Assembly: GCA_038060895.1 (NCBI GenBank)
Contig: JBBTCT010000001.1
Location: forward strand, 192,001 to 256,000
Length of the DNA: 64,000 nt
Reading direction: 5' to 3'
DNA from: Planctomycetota bacterium
Lineage (GTDB): Bacteria > Planctomycetota > MHYJ01 > WSZJ01
Positions 5,343 to 13,748 of the stretch are shown here, piece by piece. The notes under the pieces were generated by a model that ran no database searches, had not been told where the DNA came from, and worked only from the letters and a program-made list of their open reading frames with translations. The translations under genes and the position numbers were made by a program. Position 1 is the first letter of the stretch; the number at the start of each line of letters is the position of its first letter.

Positions 5343-5420
5343 CGGGGTGTAGCGCAGCCTGGTTAGCGCGCCACGCTTGGGACGTGGAGGTCGGCGGTTC
5401 GAATCCGCCCACCCCGACCA
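5343..5420 (+). tRNA. tRNA-Pro(TGG)
   Basis: CGGGGTG/CACCCCG acceptor stem, anticodon arm CCACG-CTTGGGA-CGTGG, GGTTCGAATCC T-loop, encoded CCA. Confidence 0.97.
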
Positions 5421-5910: not shown

Positions 5911-5982
5911 AATCCCGCCTCCCGGGAAGATCCGTTGCACGCCCGTTGTTACAGGTCCATCCCCCATGAAAGCGAGCCATCG

Positions 5983-6987
5983 ATGAGCAGGGTGTTTCTG
6001 GCCGCCGGAATCGCACTCGCCCTCTGCCGCGCCGCTTCGGCCGGCGGCATCGAGTGGATCGACAACGATTACGACAAGGCCGTCGCGAAGGCGAAGGAGG
6101 CCGGCAAACTCGTCCTCGTGCACTGGCGCAAGGACGGCTGCCACTGGTGCACCGATCTCCAGGAGAAGACGCTCGCGACCGACGATGTCGCGAAGTTTCT
6201 CGGCGAGACCTGCGTCAGCGTGCGAATGGACCGCGCGAAATACGGCCAGCTCGCGGAGAAATTCCACGTCGATGCCACCCCCGACACCCAGTTCCACTCC
6301 AGCGACGGGCGCGTCGTCAAACGCATCGTCGGATTCCTCCCGGCGGAGCAGTTCCTGGCGGAAGCGCAATCGGCGCCGGAAGCGTGGAAGCGGATTCAGG
6401 AACTCGAGGCCGCCATCGCCAAAGACGACAAGGACGCCGCTTCGAAGCTCGACCTGGGCCGTCTCCTGGCCGCGGCCGGTGATCTCGACGCGGCGGACAG
6501 GCACCTGCGCGCCGCCGCGGGCCTGGACACGGACAACGCGAAGGGGCTGGCGCTGGAAGCCTGGTGGACTATGGCGGACTCACGGATGCGCGAGCCGCGT
6601 CCGGACGTAGGTCTGGCCAAGGAAGCGCTCGCGAAAGTGCAGGAGCTGGACCCGAAGAACGAAAAGGGACGGATGGACAATGCGGCGGTGCAGCTCGCGC
6701 GCATCGAGCTCAATGCGGCGCCGAAGCTTGCAAAGGCCTCGCTGGAGAAAATCATGGCGGACTACCCCGGCACCGACGGGGCGGCAGAAGCGATGTTCGT
6801 CCTCGCGGCCGATGTCCTCGTCGATATCGACCGCAACTTCGACGCCGGGGAAGCTATGCTGAAGAAGCTCGCGGCGGAGATGCCTGAGGATCCGTGGGCG
6901 AAGCGCGTCCCGGCCGCCCTGGAACAACTCGCCGTCATCCGCAAGGAATCCACGAAGGACATCAAGAAAGAGGGAGAAGAAAAATGA
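5983..6987 (+). CDS. Exported thioredoxin-fold (CHWC) + TPR protein
   Basis: Signal peptide, IEW..DYDKAVAKAKEAGKLVLVHW..DGCHWC, downstream cis-Pro-like ATP, TPR-like helices. Confidence 0.88.
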   Translation: MSRVFLAAGIALALCRAASAGGIEWIDNDYDKAVAKAKEAGKLVLVHWRKDGCHWCTDLQEKTLATDDVAKFLGETCVSVRMDRAKYGQLAEKFHVDATPDTQFHSSDGRVVKRIVGFLPAEQFLAEAQSAPEAWKRIQELEAAIAKDDKDAASKLDLGRLLAAAGDLDAADRHLRAAAGLDTDNAKGLALEAWWTMADSRMREPRPDVGLAKEALAKVQELDPKNEKGRMDNAAVQLARIELNAAPKLAKASLEKIMADYPGTDGAAEAMFVLAADVLVDIDRNFDAGEAMLKKLAAEMPEDPWAKRVPAALEQLAVIRKESTKDIKKEGEEK

Positions 6988-7919
6988 AGCGCCTCCAACT
7001 CGCCGCCGCTTTCCTTGCCGCCGCCGCGATCGCGCGAGCCGACGGCGTGGACTGGGTGACCGACTACTCCAAGGGCCTTGAGAAGGCGAAGGAGTCCGGG
7101 AAACTCGTACAGGTGCACTTCACGGCCGACTGGTGAAACGCCTGCAAAGTCATGGATACGGATACGTATTCCAACGCCGACATCGCGAAGTACCTGAACG
7201 AGACTTTCGTCAACATCCGGATCGACACCGACAAAGACCCGGACACCGCGAAGAAGTTCAAGGTCCGCGCCATCCCGGACACCCGCTTCCTCGACTCCGG
7301 CGGGAAAGAGCTTCTGCGGATCATCGGACATCGCGCGGAGTTCTTCGACCAGGTGAAGTCCCTGGGTGAAATCGCGGCGGTTGAGTTATCGGTGAAAAAC
7401 AACCCGAAGAACGTCCCGACGCTGATCGCCGCTTCCATCGTTTACCTGAAGCTGGGCCGCATTGATGAAGCCGGCGCGCTGCTGGAAACGGCGATCGACA
7501 ACGACCGGGACAACGCGAGCGGAAAGCGCGAAGAGCTTTTTTACCGCCTCGGCCTCGTGAACATGAAGGCCGGGAACGATGCGAAGGCGGAGGCGGCGTG
7601 GGCGGAGGTCGGGAAAATGGACCCTGAGAACAAGAAGGGGTACATCGACGACCTGCAGTTCGACCGGTGCCTGAAGCAGACGGACGAGGAGGACTACCAC
7701 GGGGCGGAGCGTTCGCTGGGCGACTTTCTGAAGCGGTATCCGGACAGCGAGCACGTGCCGGAAGCCCGCTACCTGCTCGGCATGTCGCAGTTCTTCATGG
7801 AGAAGCGGGAAGACGCGGTTTCGACATGGAAGGACCTGATCCGCGAGAAGCCTGACACGGACGCGGCGAAGAAAGCGGAGAAGGGTCTGAAGTTCGCGGA
7901 GAAGAAAACGAAGAAGTAG
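6984..7919 (+). CDS. Probable selenoprotein: exported thioredoxin-fold (UNAC) + TPR protein, UGA at 7134-7136
   Basis: Track ORFs 6894..7136 and 7152..7919 are in one frame separated only by TGA: HFTADW-U-NACKVM; ATGA-coupled to the Cys paralog; hairpin at 7154-7172. Confidence 0.85.
7154..7172 (+). promoter_or_regulatory. Candidate bacterial SECIS element
   Basis: GGATACG-GATA-CGTA(T)TCC hairpin starting 17 nt after the in-frame UGA; G-initiated apical loop. Confidence 0.7.
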
Positions 7920-8959: not shown

Positions 8960-9336
8960 GCCTTTGCGATGACGTCGATCTCGACCGCGGCGTCCTTCGG
9001 GAGCCGGGCGGCCTGGATGGTGGCGCGGGCTGGCGGATCCTTGGCGAAGTACTCGGCGTAGGCCGCATTCATCGCGGCAAAGTCGTTCATGTCCTTCAGG
9101 TACACCGTGGTTTTGACGACCCGGTCGAGGCCGCTTCCCGCCGCGGCAAGCACAGCCTTGAGGTTCTCGAGGGCGCGCCGCGTCTGCGCGCCGGTGTCGC
9201 CGGCGACCATCTGGCCCGTGGCGGGATCGAGGGGGATCTGGCCGGAAGCGAAGACCCAGCCGTCCATGACGACGGCCTGGGAGTAGGGGCCGATCGCCTG
9301 AGGTGCGCCGGGGGTGCTGACGGTCTTGCGGCTCAT
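8956..9336 (-). CDS. ridA: RidA/YjgF/UK114 family protein
   Basis: APQAIGPYSQA, SGQIPLDP, VVKTTVYL, PARA, LPKDAAVEID. Confidence 0.92.
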   Translation of the reverse strand: MSRKTVSTPGAPQAIGPYSQAVVMDGWVFASGQIPLDPATGQMVAGDTGAQTRRALENLKAVLAAAGSGLDRVVKTTVYLKDMNDFAAMNAAYAEYFAKDPPARATIQAARLPKDAAVEIDVIAKA

Positions 9337-10412
9337 CGCGTGTTCTCCGCGTCTGCGCGCAGCTTCGCGTCGGCGAGGACGCAGGCCACGCAGGCCTCCA
9401 CGATCGGCACGGCGCGCGGGACGACGCAGGGGTCGTGCCGCCCTTTCGTTTCGATGACGGCGGGTTTCATGGTCGCGAGGTTGACCGTGTCCTGCTTGCG
9501 AGGGAGCGAACTGGTCGGCTTGAACGCGACGCGAGCGACGAGCGGCATGCCGGTCGAGATGCCCCCGAGGATGCCGCCGGAATTGTTCGTGCGCGTCGTG
9601 ACGTGCCCCGCGTGGTCGACGTCGAACGCATCGTTGTGATCGCTTCCCTTCATGCGCGCCGCCCGGAAGCCTGCGCCGAACTCGACCCCGCGGGCGGCGG
9701 GGATGGCGAGCAGCGCGCGGGCCAATTCGGATTCGAGCCCGTCGGCGCCGGGGCCGCCCCAGCCGGCGGGCAGGCCCTGGGCCCTGACCTCGACGACGCC
9801 GCCCACGGAGTCCGCTTCGGACCGGGCCCTGGTGATGGCGTGCTCCATCAGTTCGGCCGTGCTGGGATCGGCGCAGCGCGTCGGGTGCGCTTCGGCCGCC
9901 GCGAGCGAGGAGAACGGGATCTCGTGCGGAACCTCGATCCCCGCGATCTCGACCACGTGCCCCGCGATCTTCACGCCCGCCAGAATCTGCCGCGCGATCG
10001 CCCCTGCGGCCACGAGCGGCGCCGTCGTCCGGGCCGAGAACGGTCCGCCCCCGCGGTGATCCCGCGCGCTTCCCCACTTGGCCCACGCCGTGAAGTCCGC
10101 GTGCCCCGGCCGCGGCAGGTCCTTCGTCGCGTCGTAGGGCCGCGAGTCGACGTCCGTGTTCCGGATGAAGATCGTCAGCGGCGCGCCGGTCGCCGCGCCG
10201 TGCATCAACCCCGCGAGAAACTCCGGCTCGTCCTCTTCCTTCCTCTGCGTCGTCAGCTTCGACTGACCCGGCCGCCGCCGCGCCAGCTCGTGACGCATCG
10301 CGTCCATGTCGAGTTTGAGACCCGCGGGAACGCCCTCCACCACGGCGCCGACACCCGGTCCGTGGCTCTCGCCGAACAACGTCACGCGGAAAATCGTCCC
10401 CAGCGTGCTCAA
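9333..10412 (-). CDS. aroC: Chorismate synthase
   Basis: FGESHG, RRRPG, RPGHAD, RGGGPFSARTT, GGISTG, FKPTSS, GRHDPC. Confidence 0.95.
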   Translation of the reverse strand: MSTLGTIFRVTLFGESHGPGVGAVVEGVPAGLKLDMDAMRHELARRRPGQSKLTTQRKEEDEPEFLAGLMHGAATGAPLTIFIRNTDVDSRPYDATKDLPRPGHADFTAWAKWGSARDHRGGGPFSARTTAPLVAAGAIARQILAGVKIAGHVVEIAGIEVPHEIPFSSLAAAEAHPTRCADPSTAELMEHAITRARSEADSVGGVVEVRAQGLPAGWGGPGADGLESELARALLAIPAARGVEFGAGFRAARMKGSDHNDAFDVDHAGHVTTRTNNSGGILGGISTGMPLVARVAFKPTSSLPRKQDTVNLATMKPAVIETKGRHDPCVVPRAVPIVEACVACVLADAKLRADAENTR

Positions 10413-11215
10413 CGCAGGCCTTCTTTCTGGAAGCGCTTCAGCGCGGCCTCGTCGCCCTTCCTCAGGGCCATCGCGAGTCCGCGCAGGTCGTCGCCCATTC
10501 TCTCCAGCGCGGCGGCAACGTGGAAGCGGTTCGCGAGGAGGAGGTCGAGGGACATCGCGGCGGGCTGGGCCGCGACGCGCGTGGCGGAACGGAAGGAGCC
10601 GGCGGCGAGGCGGGCGGCGAGAGGGCCGCCCTTTCGACCGAGCCTTACAAGAGCGAGCGCGAGAGCATACGGCAGGTGAGAAATGAGTGCGACGGCGCGG
10701 TCATGGGCTTGTGCGGTGACGACGAGCGGGACGGCGCCGAGCTGCACCACGAGCTTCTTCATGGCCGGCAGGGCCGCGCGATCTCCCGGCACGAGCGCCC
10801 AAGTCGCCCCCTTGAACAGCGCCGGGTCCGCCGCCTCGATCCCTCCCCGCTCCGTGCCGCACATCGGGTGGCCGCCGACGAATCCGCGCACGCCGCGGAA
10901 CGCGCGCATGATCCCGGCTTTCGCCGAGCCGACGTCCGTGATGCGCGTGCCGGGAAGCTGCAGCTCCGCGATCTTCCACGCAAGCGACTGGATCGTCCGC
11001 ACCGGCGTCGCCAGGACCACGAGGTCCGCTCCCGCGACAGGCCAGAGATTCTGCGCCGTCTCCGTGCACGCGCGCCGGCGAAGCGCCCGCCGCAGGACCG
11101 CAGGGTCGCTGTCGATCCCCACGACGCGCCTTGCCAGCCGCCGCGTGAGCAGCGCCATGCCGAGCGATCCGCCGATGTGGCCCATGCCGACGATGACGAC
11201 GCTGGCAGGTTTCAT
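10409..11215 (-). CDS. tyrA: Prephenate/arogenate dehydrogenase
   Basis: GMGHIGGS, TDVGSAK, GGHPMCGTE, HDRAVALISHLP. Confidence 0.9.
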   Translation of the reverse strand: MKPASVVIVGMGHIGGSLGMALLTRRLARRVVGIDSDPAVLRRALRRRACTETAQNLWPVAGADLVVLATPVRTIQSLAWKIAELQLPGTRITDVGSAKAGIMRAFRGVRGFVGGHPMCGTERGGIEAADPALFKGATWALVPGDRAALPAMKKLVVQLGAVPLVVTAQAHDRAVALISHLPYALALALVRLGRKGGPLAARLAAGSFRSATRVAAQPAAMSLDLLLANRFHVAAALERMGDDLRGLAMALRKGDEAALKRFQKEGLR

Positions 11216-11592
11216 TTCAGGTAAGTCATCTCGCCGCCGCCCCAGGACCAGTTCTCTTTGGGGACCTCGACGAGGCTGATGACGATGTCCTCCCGGTTCA
11301 CGCCGGCGCCCGCCAGCAAGTCCGCGATCTTCGCGTAAAGCGCACGCTTCAATTCGACCGTCCGCCCCGCGTTCATCGTCACCTGGATCACGACAATTCC
11401 GTCCGATTTCGGCATCCCCATGTAAGAAGGCGGGTGGACAAGCCCCTCCGGCCCGTGCTCCGTGATGACCTGGAATTTCCCGTCCGCAGGCGCACTCACC
11501 GCCTCGACCAGCGCACGGTGCACCGCGTCGCCGATGGCTTTCACCGCCGCCGGCGGGCGCCCCGAACGCATCGAGATCCTCACGAGCGGCAT
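11212..11592 (-). CDS. Tautomerase family protein (N-terminal catalytic Pro)
   Basis: MPLVRISM..., GRTVELKRALY, ENWSWGGG. Confidence 0.85.
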   Translation of the reverse strand: MPLVRISMRSGRPPAAVKAIGDAVHRALVEAVSAPADGKFQVITEHGPEGLVHPPSYMGMPKSDGIVVIQVTMNAGRTVELKRALYAKIADLLAGAGVNREDIVISLVEVPKENWSWGGGEMTYLK

Positions 11593-11606
11593 CGTTCCAC
11601 CCCCTC

Positions 11607-11645
11607 TCAAAACAGAACGGGGAGGCCGGCGAACCGGCCTCCCCG
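11607..11645 (-). terminator. Intrinsic terminator downstream of the second selenoprotein gene
   Basis: CGGGGAGGCCGG-TTCG-CCGGCCTCCCCG then TTCTGTTTT on the minus strand. Confidence 0.75.
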
Positions 11646-11663
11646 GATTGAGCCGTCCATTCG

Positions 11664-12587
11664 CTACTTCGGGTCCTTCTCCGACTTCAGCTTCTTCAGG
11701 GTCTTCTCCTTCGCGTCGAAAAACCCTTTCGCCTGCGGGTTGTCCCCGAACATCGCCTTCAGCCCGTTCAGCGCAGCCTCGAAACCCGCCGCGTCTTTCT
11801 CCTTCTCCGAGTAGTTCAGGATCGCCATGTAAAACGTCTGCCCGACTTCCTTGTCCGTCGGCGCACGCTTCGCCTTCAGCATCTCCATGAACTTCTTCGC
11901 GGTCGCCGCCTCCTGCTCGTCCAGAATCTGCTGGACCTCGGCGTTCGCCAGCGCGCCGTTCAGCCGCGGCTCCTGCTCCGCCGACGGCTTCGGAAGATCC
12001 TTCAGCTTCTTCTTCGCCTCGTCCGCCTTGATGGCGCCCGTCTCCAGCTTCCCGATCAGCACCTCCAGCGCAGCGGCTTTGTCCCCGCCTTCCGCCTTCT
12101 TCACCATCGCAATGAATGACTCGGCCTTTTTCAGTGCTTCCGAGAACGTGTCCACCGTGTACGGCCGATCGAACTTCGAGATCACTTCCCCCGCCGAGTC
12201 CAGGTACGCCATGTACGGAAACCCGTCGCCGCCCTTCGCCTCGAACAGCTCCTGGTACTGGTCCTCTTCGACGTGCGACGTGATGTGCAGGAAAAGAACC
12301 ACCTTGGAAGCGAACGTCAGGAATTCTTCAGAGGAGAGCGTACCGCCCTCCAGGCTGTTGCACGGCCCTCAGGGGGCGTAGGAACGGGTGAAATACACGA
12401 GCATCGGCTTGCCGGATTTCTTCGCTTCCTCGCGAGCCTTGTCGTAGTCGAGGAGCCAGTGACCTTTTTCGATGAAGGGCTCTTTGAGCTTCTTGTCGCG
12501 CTTGTCTTCGAGGTCGCCTGCGGTGGCGCGGGCGCCGAGGAGGGCGACCAGCGCGGCCACGAGCGGCAGCAGTTTCAGGTTCGTCAC
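11664..12587 (-). CDS. Probable selenoprotein: exported thioredoxin-fold (UGPC) protein with helical C-terminus, UGA at 12369-12371
   Basis: Track ORFs 12369..12677 and 11664..12302 are in one frame: YFTRSYAP-U-GPCNSLEGGTLSSEEF...GFP; GTG start with GGAG SD; signal peptide. Confidence 0.83.
12333..12351 (-). promoter_or_regulatory. Candidate bacterial SECIS element
   Basis: GGAGGGCG-GTA-CGCTCTCC hairpin starting 17 nt after the in-frame UGA. Confidence 0.72.
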
Positions 12588-12698
12588 AAGCCTTCTCCGA
12601 CGGGGGAGGAAATGCCGGCCGGGCGGGGGCGTCTGGGCCCCCTGGAAGCCCGCATCGGCGCGTGGCATCCTAAACACGGAACGCCTATCGGATAATCC

Positions 12699-13748
12699 TT
12701 AAATGCTGCGCCCGATGCACCGGGCGATCGCGGAGAGTTCCTTCATCAGGACGTCGAACTGGTCAGGGTGGAGCGACTGCGCGCCGTCGCACTTCGCGAC
12801 TTCCGGCCTCGGGTGGACCTCGATGATGAGCCCGTCCGCGCCGGCCGCGATCGCCGCCTTGGCAAGGGGGCCGACGAGGTCGCGGTCGCCCGCGGCGTGC
12901 GAAGGGTCGCAGACGATCGGGAGGTGGGAGAGCTTCTTGACCACGGGGACGCAGGAGATGTCGTACGTGTTGCGTGTGTACTTTTCAAATGTGCGGATGC
13001 CGCGCTCGCACAGGATCACGTTGTAGTTGCCCTTCGAGAGGATGTACTCCGCGCTCAGCAGCAGTTCCTCGATGGTGGACATCATTCCGCGCTTGAGCAG
13101 CACCGGCTTCCCCGCTTTCCCGACTTCTTCCAGCAGGTTGAAGTTCTGCATGTTGCGCGCGCCGATTTGAAGGATGTCCGCGTACTCCATCACGGCCGGG
13201 ATGTCCTGCACCGAGAGGACTTCCGTGACTACGGCCATGTCGTTCGCGTCGGCCGCTTCCCGCAGGATTTCCAGCCCGGGCTTCCCCAGCCCCTGGAACG
13301 CGTACGGGCTCGTCCGCGGCTTGAACGCGCCGCCGCGCAGGATCGTCGCCCCCGCGGCCTTCACACGCTTCGCCGCTTCCATCACCTGCGCCCGGTCCTC
13401 CACCGCGCAGGGCCCGGCCATCACCGTCACCTGCCGGCCGCCGATCCGCCGGCCGCGCACCTCGACGACCGTGTCCTCCTGCTTGAACTCGCGCGACGCC
13501 AGCTTGTACGGCTTGAGAATCGGGATCACGCGCTCGACCCCCGCAAGGCCGTCAAACGCCGCCGGCTCCACCTTCCGGTCGCTTCCGATTATCCCGATCA
13601 CCGTCCGTTCCTCGCCGCTCGAAATGTGCGGCTTGAATCCCAACGACTCGATCTGCTGCAGCACGGCGCCCGTTTCGCGGGCGGAAGCGCTGGATTTCAT
13701 CACGACGATCATGGCGGTATCGCTTTCAGCTTTCGGGGGAGGGCTCAT
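12699..13748 (-). CDS. aroF: DAHP synthase, class I-beta with N-terminal regulatory domain (alternative start at 13712)
   Basis: AGPCAVE, RGGAFKPRTSPYAFQG, QIGARNMQN, LKRG, CERGIRTF, DPSHAAG. Confidence 0.94.
   Translation of the reverse strand: MSPPPKAESDTAMIVVMKSSASARETGAVLQQIESLGFKPHISSGEERTVIGIIGSDRKVEPAAFDGLAGVERVIPILKPYKLASREFKQEDTVVEVRGRRIGGRQVTVMAGPCAVEDRAQVMEAAKRVKAAGATILRGGAFKPRTSPYAFQGLGKPGLEILREAADANDMAVVTEVLSVQDIPAVMEYADILQIGARNMQNFNLLEEVGKAGKPVLLKRGMMSTIEELLLSAEYILSKGNYNVILCERGIRTFEKYTRNTYDISCVPVVKKLSHLPIVCDPSHAAGDRDLVGPLAKAAIAAGADGLIIEVHPRPEVAKCDGAQSLHPDQFDVLMKELSAIARCIGRSI

Follow-up and report, generated by a model that had tools for sequence, protein, structure and literature searches.

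Among structures in the PDB, the closest relative of the planctomycete protein described here is DsbH of Chlamydia (2ju5). It ranks first both by sequence (profile search, E 2e-9) and by fold (Z 12.7, rmsd 2.7 Å over 117 residues). DsbH is, by its NCBIfam name, a periplasmic disulfide reductase. Like the thioredoxin part of the planctomycete protein, which is predicted to be exported, DsbH is an exported single domain of the Trx7 type. The dyad occupies the same position in both, and the alignment puts Sec73 on the first Cys of CMWC in DsbH. The two proteins differ in that their identity is only ~24%, P-U-G-P-C stands here in place of W-C-M-W-C, and DsbH is without the extra 140-residue helical domain and the conserved N-terminal helix. 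The DsbH equivalog (NF043050) was rejected as an assignment, with 32 bits against a cut-off of 190 and E 1.8e-11 for the best of 26 family members. After DsbH, the fold list continues with a DsbD-like exported domain and then AGR3. The gamma domain of DsbD and the DsbD-like exported domains (1vrs, 2fwe, 3f9u) have the same Thioredoxin_7 fold (Z 10.3-12.2) and work in a periplasmic redox setting, but the planctomycete protein stands alone, without the membrane domain of DsbD, and is more probably a DsbD client than a component of DsbD.

Selenoproteins with a UxxC dyad on the thioredoxin fold are known from bacteria, and Table 1 of PMC13188914 includes thioredoxin (PF00085), thiol:disulfide interchange protein (PF13098), DsbA-like and DsbG-like types. 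The planctomycete gene shares with these catalogued entries the dyad, the fold, the existence of Cys homologs and a SECIS within the coding region, but it belongs to another sub-family (PF13899) and has another architecture. A Pfam scan of the protein gave no match to PF00085, and PF13098 scored 12.9 bits (E 0.15). The same table holds a Trx7/PDZ (seleno)protein (NF041199) which has the Thioredoxin_7 domain in common with our protein and matches it weakly over residues 43-84. This candidate was rejected: it scored 25.3 bits where 300 are required, the Pfam scan found no PDZ domain in the protein, and the motif here is UxxC and not the catalogued CxxU. The VPGUxxT thioredoxin-like (seleno)proteins (NF041383, NF041382) are likewise a Trx-like selenoprotein family with a weak match, 17.1 bits. 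The type 2 model (NF041383) has a cut-off of 275 and was set aside, the motif here being YAPUGPC with VPGUxxT absent.

Two further proteins combine a Trx domain with a C-terminal repeat domain. The gene at 6984-7919 (+) of the same window encodes another exported selenoprotein, a Trx7 plus TPR protein with W-U-N-A-C, which shares U-x-x-C and whose homology to our protein extends from the Trx domain into the first C-terminal helices (hhalign probability 97.4%, E 1.5e-11, 139 columns). It differs in its 22% identity, in the classical W before U and in a C-terminal domain which scores as Pfam TPR. The E. coli chaperedoxin CnoX/YbbN (3qou) follows the same plan of a Trx domain and then a helical repeat domain (Foldseek E 3e-4), but differs with an rmsd of ~22 Å and 14% identity. 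YbbN is cytoplasmic and is not known to have a CxxC.

By the window we mean the whole stretch of 64,000 nucleotides that was analysed, which comes from a MAG of 86.5% completeness. The selenoprotein gene occupies 11664-12587 on the minus strand. It starts with GTG (12587-12585), ends with TAG (11666-11664) and has 307 codons including Sec73. The frame is open except for a single internal TGA at codon 73 (12369-12371), the first position of U-G-P-C. The residues around it read LVYFTRSYAP-U-GPC; GGDGFPY and a helical tail come next. A putative Shine-Dalgarno-like sequence, GGAGAAGG (12591-12598, minus strand), lies 3 nt ahead of the GTG, and the start region is the same in orthologs with 84% and 73% identity. 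By eye, the N-termini of the protein and its homologs open with basic residues, continue into a hydrophobic stretch and finish in a cleavage motif of small residues, of the A-x-A type. The predicted signal peptide would cover about residues 1-23, MTNLKLLPLVAALVALLGARATA (12519-12587, minus strand), and is conserved in homologs. Since an independent DNA contig of 591 nt from another study spans 11954-12544 with 0 differences, the TGA is no assembly error.

The frame downstream of the signal peptide continues as one thioredoxin fold. Pfam Thioredoxin_7 (PF13899) matches residues 44-130 with 41.9 bits against a cut-off of 27 and covers profile positions 2-82 of 83. The AlphaFold model (mean pLDDT 91.7, pTM 0.81) has a single Trx fold at residues ~40-166 (12090-12470, minus strand), which is continuous through residue 73, with a strand at 62-68, then U73 and C76, and a helix at 74-81. 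In the model the dyad follows strand beta-1 and lies at the start of helix alpha-1, which matches the (C/U)xxC layout. Since both the profile match and the predicted fold cross the TGA, this is, by the model, one gene rather than two. The resolving Cys76 (TGC, 12360-12362) and Pro124 of G-F-P (12216-12218), a candidate cis-proline, are both invariant in the family alignment. Residues 165-307 (11667-12095, minus strand) form an all-helical C-terminal domain, for which no Pfam family, TPR included, was found in any of the 23 C-terminal domains scanned. Its fold list is dominated by TPR domains, with weak matches (Z <= 8.8 over ~80 residues), and the last 80 residues resemble co-chaperone TPR domains below the level that the tool treats as meaningful for helical repeats. 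The first-pass annotation, which was made from the letters of the window, had described an exported, thioredoxin-like protein with an in-frame TGA at codon 73 in U-G-P-C, a GFP segment and a helical tail, and each of these elements was recovered in our analysis. The two checks it had named for its own refutation, on the homologs and on the fold of the joined chain, both spoke for it.

The TGA is a property of the family. It falls in one alignment column in 22/22 TGA-bearing homologs extracted, within the motif [FY][TS]RS[YF]xx-U-xx-C, and in-frame TGA was present in 37/39 matches at E <= 1e-35 in 41 related genomes. Across the phylum the column recurs, by our count, in 131/150 among the matches listed. 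Judged from these alignments, such recurrence exceeds chance. The dipeptide between U and C varies (GP, PP, PF, PY). Other homologs have Cys at this position: one locus reads TGT at the TGA column, 11 Cys-form loci were found in named Planctomycetota MAGs, and 44/49 motif-matching library representatives have Cys at the Sec column. Homologs neither stop nor split here, the TGA being kept in some and replaced by Cys in others. A tree of 33 copies requires a minimum of 4 changes between Sec and Cys, and well-supported branches force 2 of these. Of the 401 genomes sampled from the phylum, 97 have the family, most often with TGA, and the library holds 536 clusters of it at E <= 1e-30.

A hairpin follows the TGA at 12333-12351 (minus strand), with the arms GGAGGGCG and CGCUCUCC and the loop GUA. 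According to the Fig. 2 legend of PMC13188914, a bSECIS has a loop of 3-9 nt with G within the first two positions, a stem of 4-16 bp, a distance of 16-37 nt from the UGA and an MFE <= -7.5 kcal/mol. The hairpin of our gene lies within all four limits given there, with a 3-nt loop starting G-U, 8 bp, 25 nt from UGA to loop and -13.0 kcal/mol. Taken alone, it is unexceptional for G+C-rich sequence. Dinucleotide shuffles gave z of +0.49 (81 nt), -0.77 (47 nt) and -0.25 (57 nt), and -2.7 when restricted to the 31-nt slot, and 54/300 synonymous shuffles of the gene's own slot fold as well. The case for the hairpin rests on comparison for this reason. Within the same 30-nt slot, 21/22 Sec forms fold to <= -8.5 kcal/mol. 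The slot mean is -13.4 kcal/mol in Sec forms vs -8.5 for synonymous-codon shuffles and -8.1 in Cys forms (11 rows, 9 distinct slots); since the compared homologs are kin, the shuffle counts and the Mann-Whitney p value overstate independence. Two loci (L051 and L054) hold a Sec and a Cys copy together, and the hairpin is in the Sec copy only, with slot energies of -14.9 and -15.0 for Sec vs -8.5 and -8.5 for Cys. On these sequence comparisons, the putative SECIS goes with the Sec forms and is absent from the Cys forms. Two pairing registers occur within the family, one of which scores 86.4% paired, a value reached by 0/500 shuffles. The register of the gene's own copy, tried on the whole alignment, gave 75% paired, which 99/500 shuffles equal, and is not above shuffles. 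In one Sec form the hairpin is, by eye, ~8 nt further downstream. A scan of the whole window at Rfam gathering thresholds matched no SECIS family, its sole match being a tRNA at 5343-5417.

The genome carries the machinery that selenocysteine insertion needs: tRNA-Sec (71.7 bits), selA, selB and selD are all above their cut-offs, selB lies on the contig of the window, and selD itself has one TGA. TGA also works as an ordinary stop in this DNA. It ends three adjacent genes (tautomerase, prephenate dehydrogenase and chorismate synthase), so there is no reassignment of the code.

Taken with the conserved column, these results mean that the stop within the gene almost certainly codes for selenocysteine, placed at the active site of a secreted redox enzyme of thioredoxin-like type. 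We put a probability of about 0.88 on the reading of the locus as a single intact gene whose product is an exported selenoprotein from the Thioredoxin_7/DsbH-like branch of the thioredoxin fold. If the TGA were a true stop, the locus would be a pseudogene, or it would encode a 72-residue exported peptide and a 212-residue protein from the GTG at 12302. Gene callers do cut here, so that the 212-aa fragment and many like it are found in public databases, many library representatives begin just past the Sec position, and TGA normally ends the neighbouring genes. However, neither half can form a thioredoxin fold, the column is kept at 35-85% protein identity (in all 22 copies extracted and in most of the 150 phylum-wide matches listed), unlike decay, Cys substitutes for it in other homologs, and the presence of the hairpin tracks the TGA. 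This makes a true stop the least credible of the alternatives. Another alternative is read-through of the UGA by a near-cognate tRNA for Trp, Cys or Arg, or through a reassigned code, and hairpins can also serve as read-through signals. We consider it scarcely more credible than a true stop, since the adjacent genes end in TGA, the homologs carry Cys at the column and not Trp or Gly, the Sec machinery is complete and the hairpin has the dimensions of a bacterial SECIS.

For the exported selenoprotein, the most likely function, by analogy, is that of a periplasmic thiol-disulfide oxidoreductase similar to DsbH and DsbD-gamma, with a TPR-like C-terminal domain. The proposed course of events is as follows. 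On the comparative evidence, SelB with Sec-tRNA(Sec) would bind the hairpin, which starts 17 nt past the UGA. With selenocysteine inserted at codon 73, the ribosome would continue and complete the 307-residue protein. After export and removal of the signal peptide, Sec73 would stand at the N-terminus of helix alpha-1, where it replaces the nucleophilic Cys of a CxxC. Its selenolate would attack a disulfide of a client protein or another oxidised sulfur, Cys76 would resolve the mixed selenenylsulfide, and a membrane electron carrier would re-reduce the Se-S bond. An obvious candidate for the carrier is the genome's only DsbD homolog, which has a UxxC gamma domain, and the conserved helical TPR-like domain probably holds clients. 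The chemistry, the direction of electron flow, the partner and the clients are all deduced from the fold and the relatives.

The same selenoprotein could have a main role other than the reduction of client disulfides, as an oxidase or isomerase of exported proteins, as a scavenger of peroxide or sulfenate, or as a redox-regulated holdase acting through its helical domain in the manner of CnoX/YbbN. In the Foldseek list, E. coli YbbN (3qou) and the homolog from Salmonella (3qdn), each a Trx+TPR protein, stand at E 2-4e-4 over ~285 columns. The likeness of the last 80 residues to co-chaperone TPR domains, the two neighbouring genes in the window for Trx7 plus TPR proteins and the variable dipeptide of the dyad would also suit such a role. 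On the other hand, the rmsd of the YbbN alignments is so high that the parts match and the arrangement does not, the TPR-like matches are below the meaningful level, and the nearest relatives in sequence and fold, DsbH and DsbD-gamma, are reductive. We regard such a role as rather unlikely, and place a role tied to aromatic amino-acid biosynthesis far below it. The gene does sit among genes of this pathway, with DAHP synthase (12699-13748) on one side and tautomerase (11212-11610), prephenate dehydrogenase (10409-11215) and chorismate synthase (9333-10412) on the other. It may be co-transcribed with DAHP synthase, as neither a terminator-like nor a promoter-like site was found in the 111-nt gap after that gene, and four genomes of the genus have the gene at this same place, one of them in three copies. 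Against this, the protein is predicted to be exported while the pathway is cytoplasmic, 17 more distant loci have no aromatic genes in their 1.5-kb flanks, a paralog in the same genome is located elsewhere, and between the gene and the pathway genes downstream lies a strong terminator. By the loci compared, the position within the aromatic cluster is conserved within the genus only. The first-pass annotation had pointed to this position; it is real, but being common to only four genomes of the genus we read it as incidental. When alternate frames of the gene itself were removed first, flanks of 1.5-3 kb had no ORF family common to more than 4 loci, and those were close kin.

For the genome as a whole, the first-pass annotation had taken two selenoprotein genes in the window as a hint of a large selenoproteome. 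This finds support in outline. In-frame TGA was present in 18/23 Thioredoxin_7 matches of the genome, at least 14 of them in a U-x-x-C context, and the gamma domain of the single DsbD homolog reads F-S-U-T-N-C. Two screens of the genome for Sec codons can be taken as a rough indication only: the strict GC3 version gave 123 candidates, 31 with a SECIS-like hairpin, and missed the target gene, and the relaxed version gave 2014 candidates with very noisy paralog pairs. This crude screening suggests several dozen Sec codons overall, and the genome appears unusually rich in such genes. For comparison, the record count for a bacterium is quoted in PMC13188914 as 57-63 genes. It is possible, and we propose it tentatively, that our gene belongs, as one node, to a periplasmic thiol-redox network of Planctomycetota that is built on selenium. 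If so, few known bacteria would be as rich in selenoproteins as these groundwater planctomycetes, selenium would have replaced sulfur all through their envelope disulfide-exchange relay, and the relay would lie in a lineage not mentioned in the selenoproteome papers searched.

The family had been called poorly described, and the sources consulted agree with this. None of the 26 members tested reached an NCBIfam cut-off. PF13899 is not mentioned in the 2026 selenoprotein review PMC13188914, where no matching entry was found, and 'Planctomycet' has 0 occurrences in the main texts of PMC13188914, PMC12013277, PMC13326102 and PMC5029168. Literature searches combining selenoprotein with Planctomycetes or Planctomycetota, or selenocysteine with DsbD and periplasm, returned nothing relevant. 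Table S1 of BSepDB covers >400 Planctomycetota genomes, and BSepDB may hold family members under another name. That the family is new and its kind, a UxxC Trx-fold selenoprotein, already known is a solid and unsurprising result. This is a widespread planctomycete family which gene callers cut in two and which was not found in the catalogues checked. In public data it exists mostly as truncated fragments or under the names 'thioredoxin family protein' and 'hypothetical protein'; a protein word-index search found 9 proteins, the majority of them 212-aa fragments. Hundreds of gene calls would be mended by a family model that flags the Sec position, and the exported Trx7 plus helical-domain architecture is an addition to the UxxC selenoprotein set. 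Together with the Sec-bearing DsbD and the many sister genes of this genome, it suggests that the planctomycete envelope relies heavily on selenium, which would matter for how much selenium groundwater communities need and how they cycle it. The natural Sec/Cys series, with side-by-side copies in some loci, offers a test of the benefit of selenium in a periplasmic oxidoreductase.

The first-pass annotation had suggested an own -10 element (TAGGAT), which the sigma-70 scan did not bear out, with 0 promoter-like sites in 11300-13000. The terminator it had placed after the gene is real. It has a 12-pair stem (11 G-C) at 11618-11645 (minus strand), 19 nt past the stop, and then a T-rich tail, TTCTGTTTTG. 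No RNA contig from the one metatranscriptome sample, whose library may contain carried-over DNA, bridges the UGA. RNA contigs of this sample align to 11824-12161, 12404-12573 and 12613-12900 with no base substituted, and one of them has a 1-nt gap at 12026.

The target gene runs on the minus strand of the window from a GTG at 12587, preceded by GGAGAAGG, to a TAG at 11666-11664. Its 307 codons contain a single internal TGA, at 12371-12369 (codon 73, Sec73). The product begins with a basic, hydrophobic N-terminus that ends in A-R-A-T-A, and continues with a conserved charged helix, the segment W..DYDKAREEAKKSGKPMLVYFTRSYAP-U-GPC, GGDGFPY and about 140 helical residues. The standard code splits the frame into ORFs of 102 and 212 codons, and the 212-residue piece is present in public protein sets. 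Locally, TGA is an ordinary stop codon: the tautomerase, prephenate dehydrogenase and chorismate synthase frames next to the target all end in it. The TGA of the target is not an assembly error, since positions 11954-12544 are reproduced without mismatch by a DNA contig from another study. One RNA-library contig (run X9, depth 3.4) lacks the base at 12026; the DNA contig covering this position has it, and the 1-nt gap is probably an assembly error of the low-depth contig.

Searching 41 related genomes in six frames gave 39 matches at E <= 1e-35, of which 37 had an in-frame TGA and 2 had none. We extracted 23 copies from 21 loci. The TGA falls in one alignment column in all 22 TGA copies, within the motif [FY][TS]RS[YF]xx-U-xx-C, and the 23rd copy (locus L040) has TGT there. 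In a profile search of 401 genomes from across the phylum, the family turned up in 97 genomes and in 73 of 288 genera; among the 150 matches listed, with 7 further matches outside this tally, 131 had one TGA, one had two and 18 had none. In a library of 1.84 billion proteins the family profile matched 7198 at E <= 1e-3, 1662 at <= 1e-10 and 536 at <= 1e-30. Residues were read for 148 of the best 150. The motif was matched by 49, with Cys (44), Ser (2), Asn, His or Val (one each) in the Sec column. The other 99 did not match, many of them being 211-250 residues long and starting directly downstream of the Sec position. Such starts are typical of split gene calls. Tandem expansions were also seen: contig C29 of genome G002 (locus L047) carries three family copies around a tautomerase gene, and contig C262 of G025 (L041/L046) carries four in a row, the last with Asn for Sec and the dyad lost.

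A hairpin can form 17 nt past the UGA (GGAGGGCG, loop GUA, CGCUCUCC; -13.0 kcal/mol). According to the legend of Fig. 2 in a 2026 review (PMC13188914), bacterial SECIS elements have an apical loop of 3-9 nt whose first two positions contain G, an upper stem of 4-16 bp, a UGA-loop distance of 16-37 nt and an MFE <= -7.5 kcal/mol. The target hairpin lies within all four of these limits (3-nt loop starting G-U, 8 bp, 25 nt, -13.0 kcal/mol). Shuffles of its 47-81-nt windows gave z from -0.77 to +0.49 (-2.7 for the 31-nt slot alone), and 54 of 300 synonymous recodings of the slot folded equally well; for a sequence this rich in G+C, the hairpin by itself is unremarkable.

The weight of the SECIS case lies in the comparative evidence, not in the single hairpin. 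Among the homologs, whose kinship makes hairpin counts and shuffle statistics overstate independence, 21 of the 22 Sec forms (TGA at the active-site column) reached <= -8.5 kcal/mol in the same 30-nt slot; in the 22nd, a hairpin was found by eye about 8 nt further downstream. Mean slot energy was -13.4 for the Sec forms versus -8.5 for synonymous recodings, and nine of the 22 copies were matched by no more than 5 of 300 recodings. Cys forms (Cys codon in that column), encoding much the same peptide, averaged -8.1 (11 rows, 9 distinct slots). In the two loci with both a Cys and a Sec copy, the hairpin is confined to the Sec copy. Two pairing registers occur across the family. The more frequent of them has 86.4% of cells paired and scores 0.252 for covariation; none of 500 shuffles reached either value, and this register beat all slid controls. 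The target's own register, applied to all alignment rows, did no better than shuffles. The stem is preserved by paired changes such as GAG/CUC to GAA/CUU, where both are synonymous, and GAG/CUC to GAA/UUC.

The window's genome (G000; 5.4 Mb in 47 contigs, 86.5% complete) encodes tRNA-Sec (71.7 bits), selA, and selB on the window's own contig; its selD (C2:48628-49548, minus strand) itself has one in-frame TGA. We consider the target a real selenoprotein gene, with a probability of about 0.95.

Thioredoxin_7 (PF13899) matches residues 44-130, spanning the TGA (41.9 bits, cut-off 27), and the AlphaFold model from a 26-row alignment has a mean pLDDT of 91.7 and a pTM of 0.81. It places a strand at 62-68, puts the U-x-x-C dyad where helix 74-81 begins, and completes a thioredoxin fold by about residue 166, after which comes an all-helical domain. 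Domain and model are both continuous through codon 73, which bears out the first-pass expectation that the joined protein forms one thioredoxin fold and that homologs are neither stopped nor split at the TGA. The C-terminal 143 residues modelled alone gave a pLDDT of 93.1. No Pfam family matched this domain in any of 23 members, and its fold matches were weak (Z <= 8.8), mostly TPR domains of co-chaperones and import receptors. The domain may plausibly bind clients.

The nearest solved fold is DsbH of Chlamydia (2ju5; Z 12.7, rmsd 2.7 Å, 117 residues), also first by sequence profile (E 2e-9), followed by a DsbD-like exported domain (3f9u), AGR3 and ERp18-type proteins, and DsbD-gamma. Since Sec73 aligns with the first Cys of the DsbH CMWC, Sec occupies the place of the attacking cysteine and Cys76 is the resolving one. 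The intervening dipeptide is G-P in the target, as in classical thioredoxin, and P-P in most relatives. Thioredoxin-fold UxxC proteins are the commonest kind of bacterial selenoprotein, and the mechanism of the target is therefore unsurprising. We infer that the target is likely an exported thiol-disulfide oxidoreductase, with a reductive or isomerising role more likely than an oxidising one. G000 has one DsbD homolog, its only DsbD_TM match (C14:122996-124996, plus strand). This 666-codon frame combines an N-terminal domain resembling that of DsbD, a membrane domain and, as gamma domain, a Thioredoxin_7 domain whose active site reads F-S-U-T-N-C (TGA at 124718), and is a candidate selenocysteine-containing DsbD. 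It would be the natural candidate for the target's electron donor.

A neighbouring exported gene with Thioredoxin_7 and TPR domains (window 6984-7919, plus strand) carries its in-frame TGA within HFTADW-U-NAC. Profile comparison shows it to be homologous to the target family over the thioredoxin domain and first helices (probability 97.4%). It is presumably the other selenoprotein of the first-pass annotation. Adjacent to it is its CxxC paralog (5980-6987, plus strand; DGCHWC), likewise exported; both score on the Thioredox_DsbH, Thioredoxin_7 and TPR families.

None of 26 family members reached an NCBIfam (release 20.0) cut-off. The best score was for DsbH (32 bits versus 190), then Trx7/PDZ, TsoB and VPGUxxT, all far under their cut-offs. 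In public databases the Cys forms are called 'thioredoxin family protein', 'Thioredoxin-like' or 'hypothetical protein'; no name is attached to the fragments. PMC13188914 mentions neither PF13899, DsbH nor Planctomycetes, and the sole Thioredoxin_7 entry of its Table 1 is the Trx7/PDZ family with the motif CxxU. The family seems uncatalogued in NCBIfam and that review; we regard it as new, though of a known kind.

The minus-strand gene order is trpB, trpA, chorismate mutase, DAHP synthase, target, terminator, tautomerase, prephenate dehydrogenase, chorismate synthase and RidA. The previously described position within an aromatic cluster is real, and the slot is likewise occupied in three further genomes of the genus, one of which has three copies there, but the short flanks of 17 more distant family loci held no aromatic genes. 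No other neighbour family was common beyond close kin, and we take the position to be a genus-level accident. The -10 element once assigned to the target found no support. The interval between DAHP synthase and the target contains neither a promoter-like nor a terminator-like site, and co-transcription of the two is possible.

A pattern search written with Cys gave 11 Cys-form loci; ten carry titles of planctomycete MAGs. We built a quick maximum-likelihood tree of 33 rows with the Sec/Cys column masked. Excluded from it were the Asn copy, L049 as a duplicate of L040, and both L056 and L058, which did not match the motif or were too short. The tree requires at least four Sec/Cys switches, two of them forced by well-supported branches, and nests one Cys form within a 99%-supported Sec-form clade. 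The Cys and Sec copies sharing loci L051 and L054 offer a natural system for asking what Sec adds.

An in-frame TGA occurs in 18 of the 23 Thioredoxin_7 matches of G000, with U-x-x-C context in at least 14. This count and a crude Sec-codon screen, which yields unconfirmed candidates and is incomplete because its strict filter missed the target, fit the earlier guess of a large selenoproteome. Two of the Thioredoxin_7 matches, on C9 (127495 and 128861), have two TGA each. A small Thioredoxin_7-like gene reading F-W-S-D-D-U-G-A-C (C4:12960-13217, minus strand) is separated by some 300 nt from the tRNA-Sec gene (C4:13533-13624) and by some 12 kb from selA. The screen also returned an FdhA-like, formate-dehydrogenase-like context, SCNRT-U-HAPS, with a SECIS-like hairpin (C2:208554, plus strand), and several further paired TGA families. 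Seven paralogous very long frames, open for about 540-610 codons on each side, have an in-frame TGA in APDY-U-THFWRQV (C36 at 20001, 38552, 44030, 47398 and 50835; C24:200004; C30:16101), and several of them carry a hairpin 16 nt 3' of the TGA.
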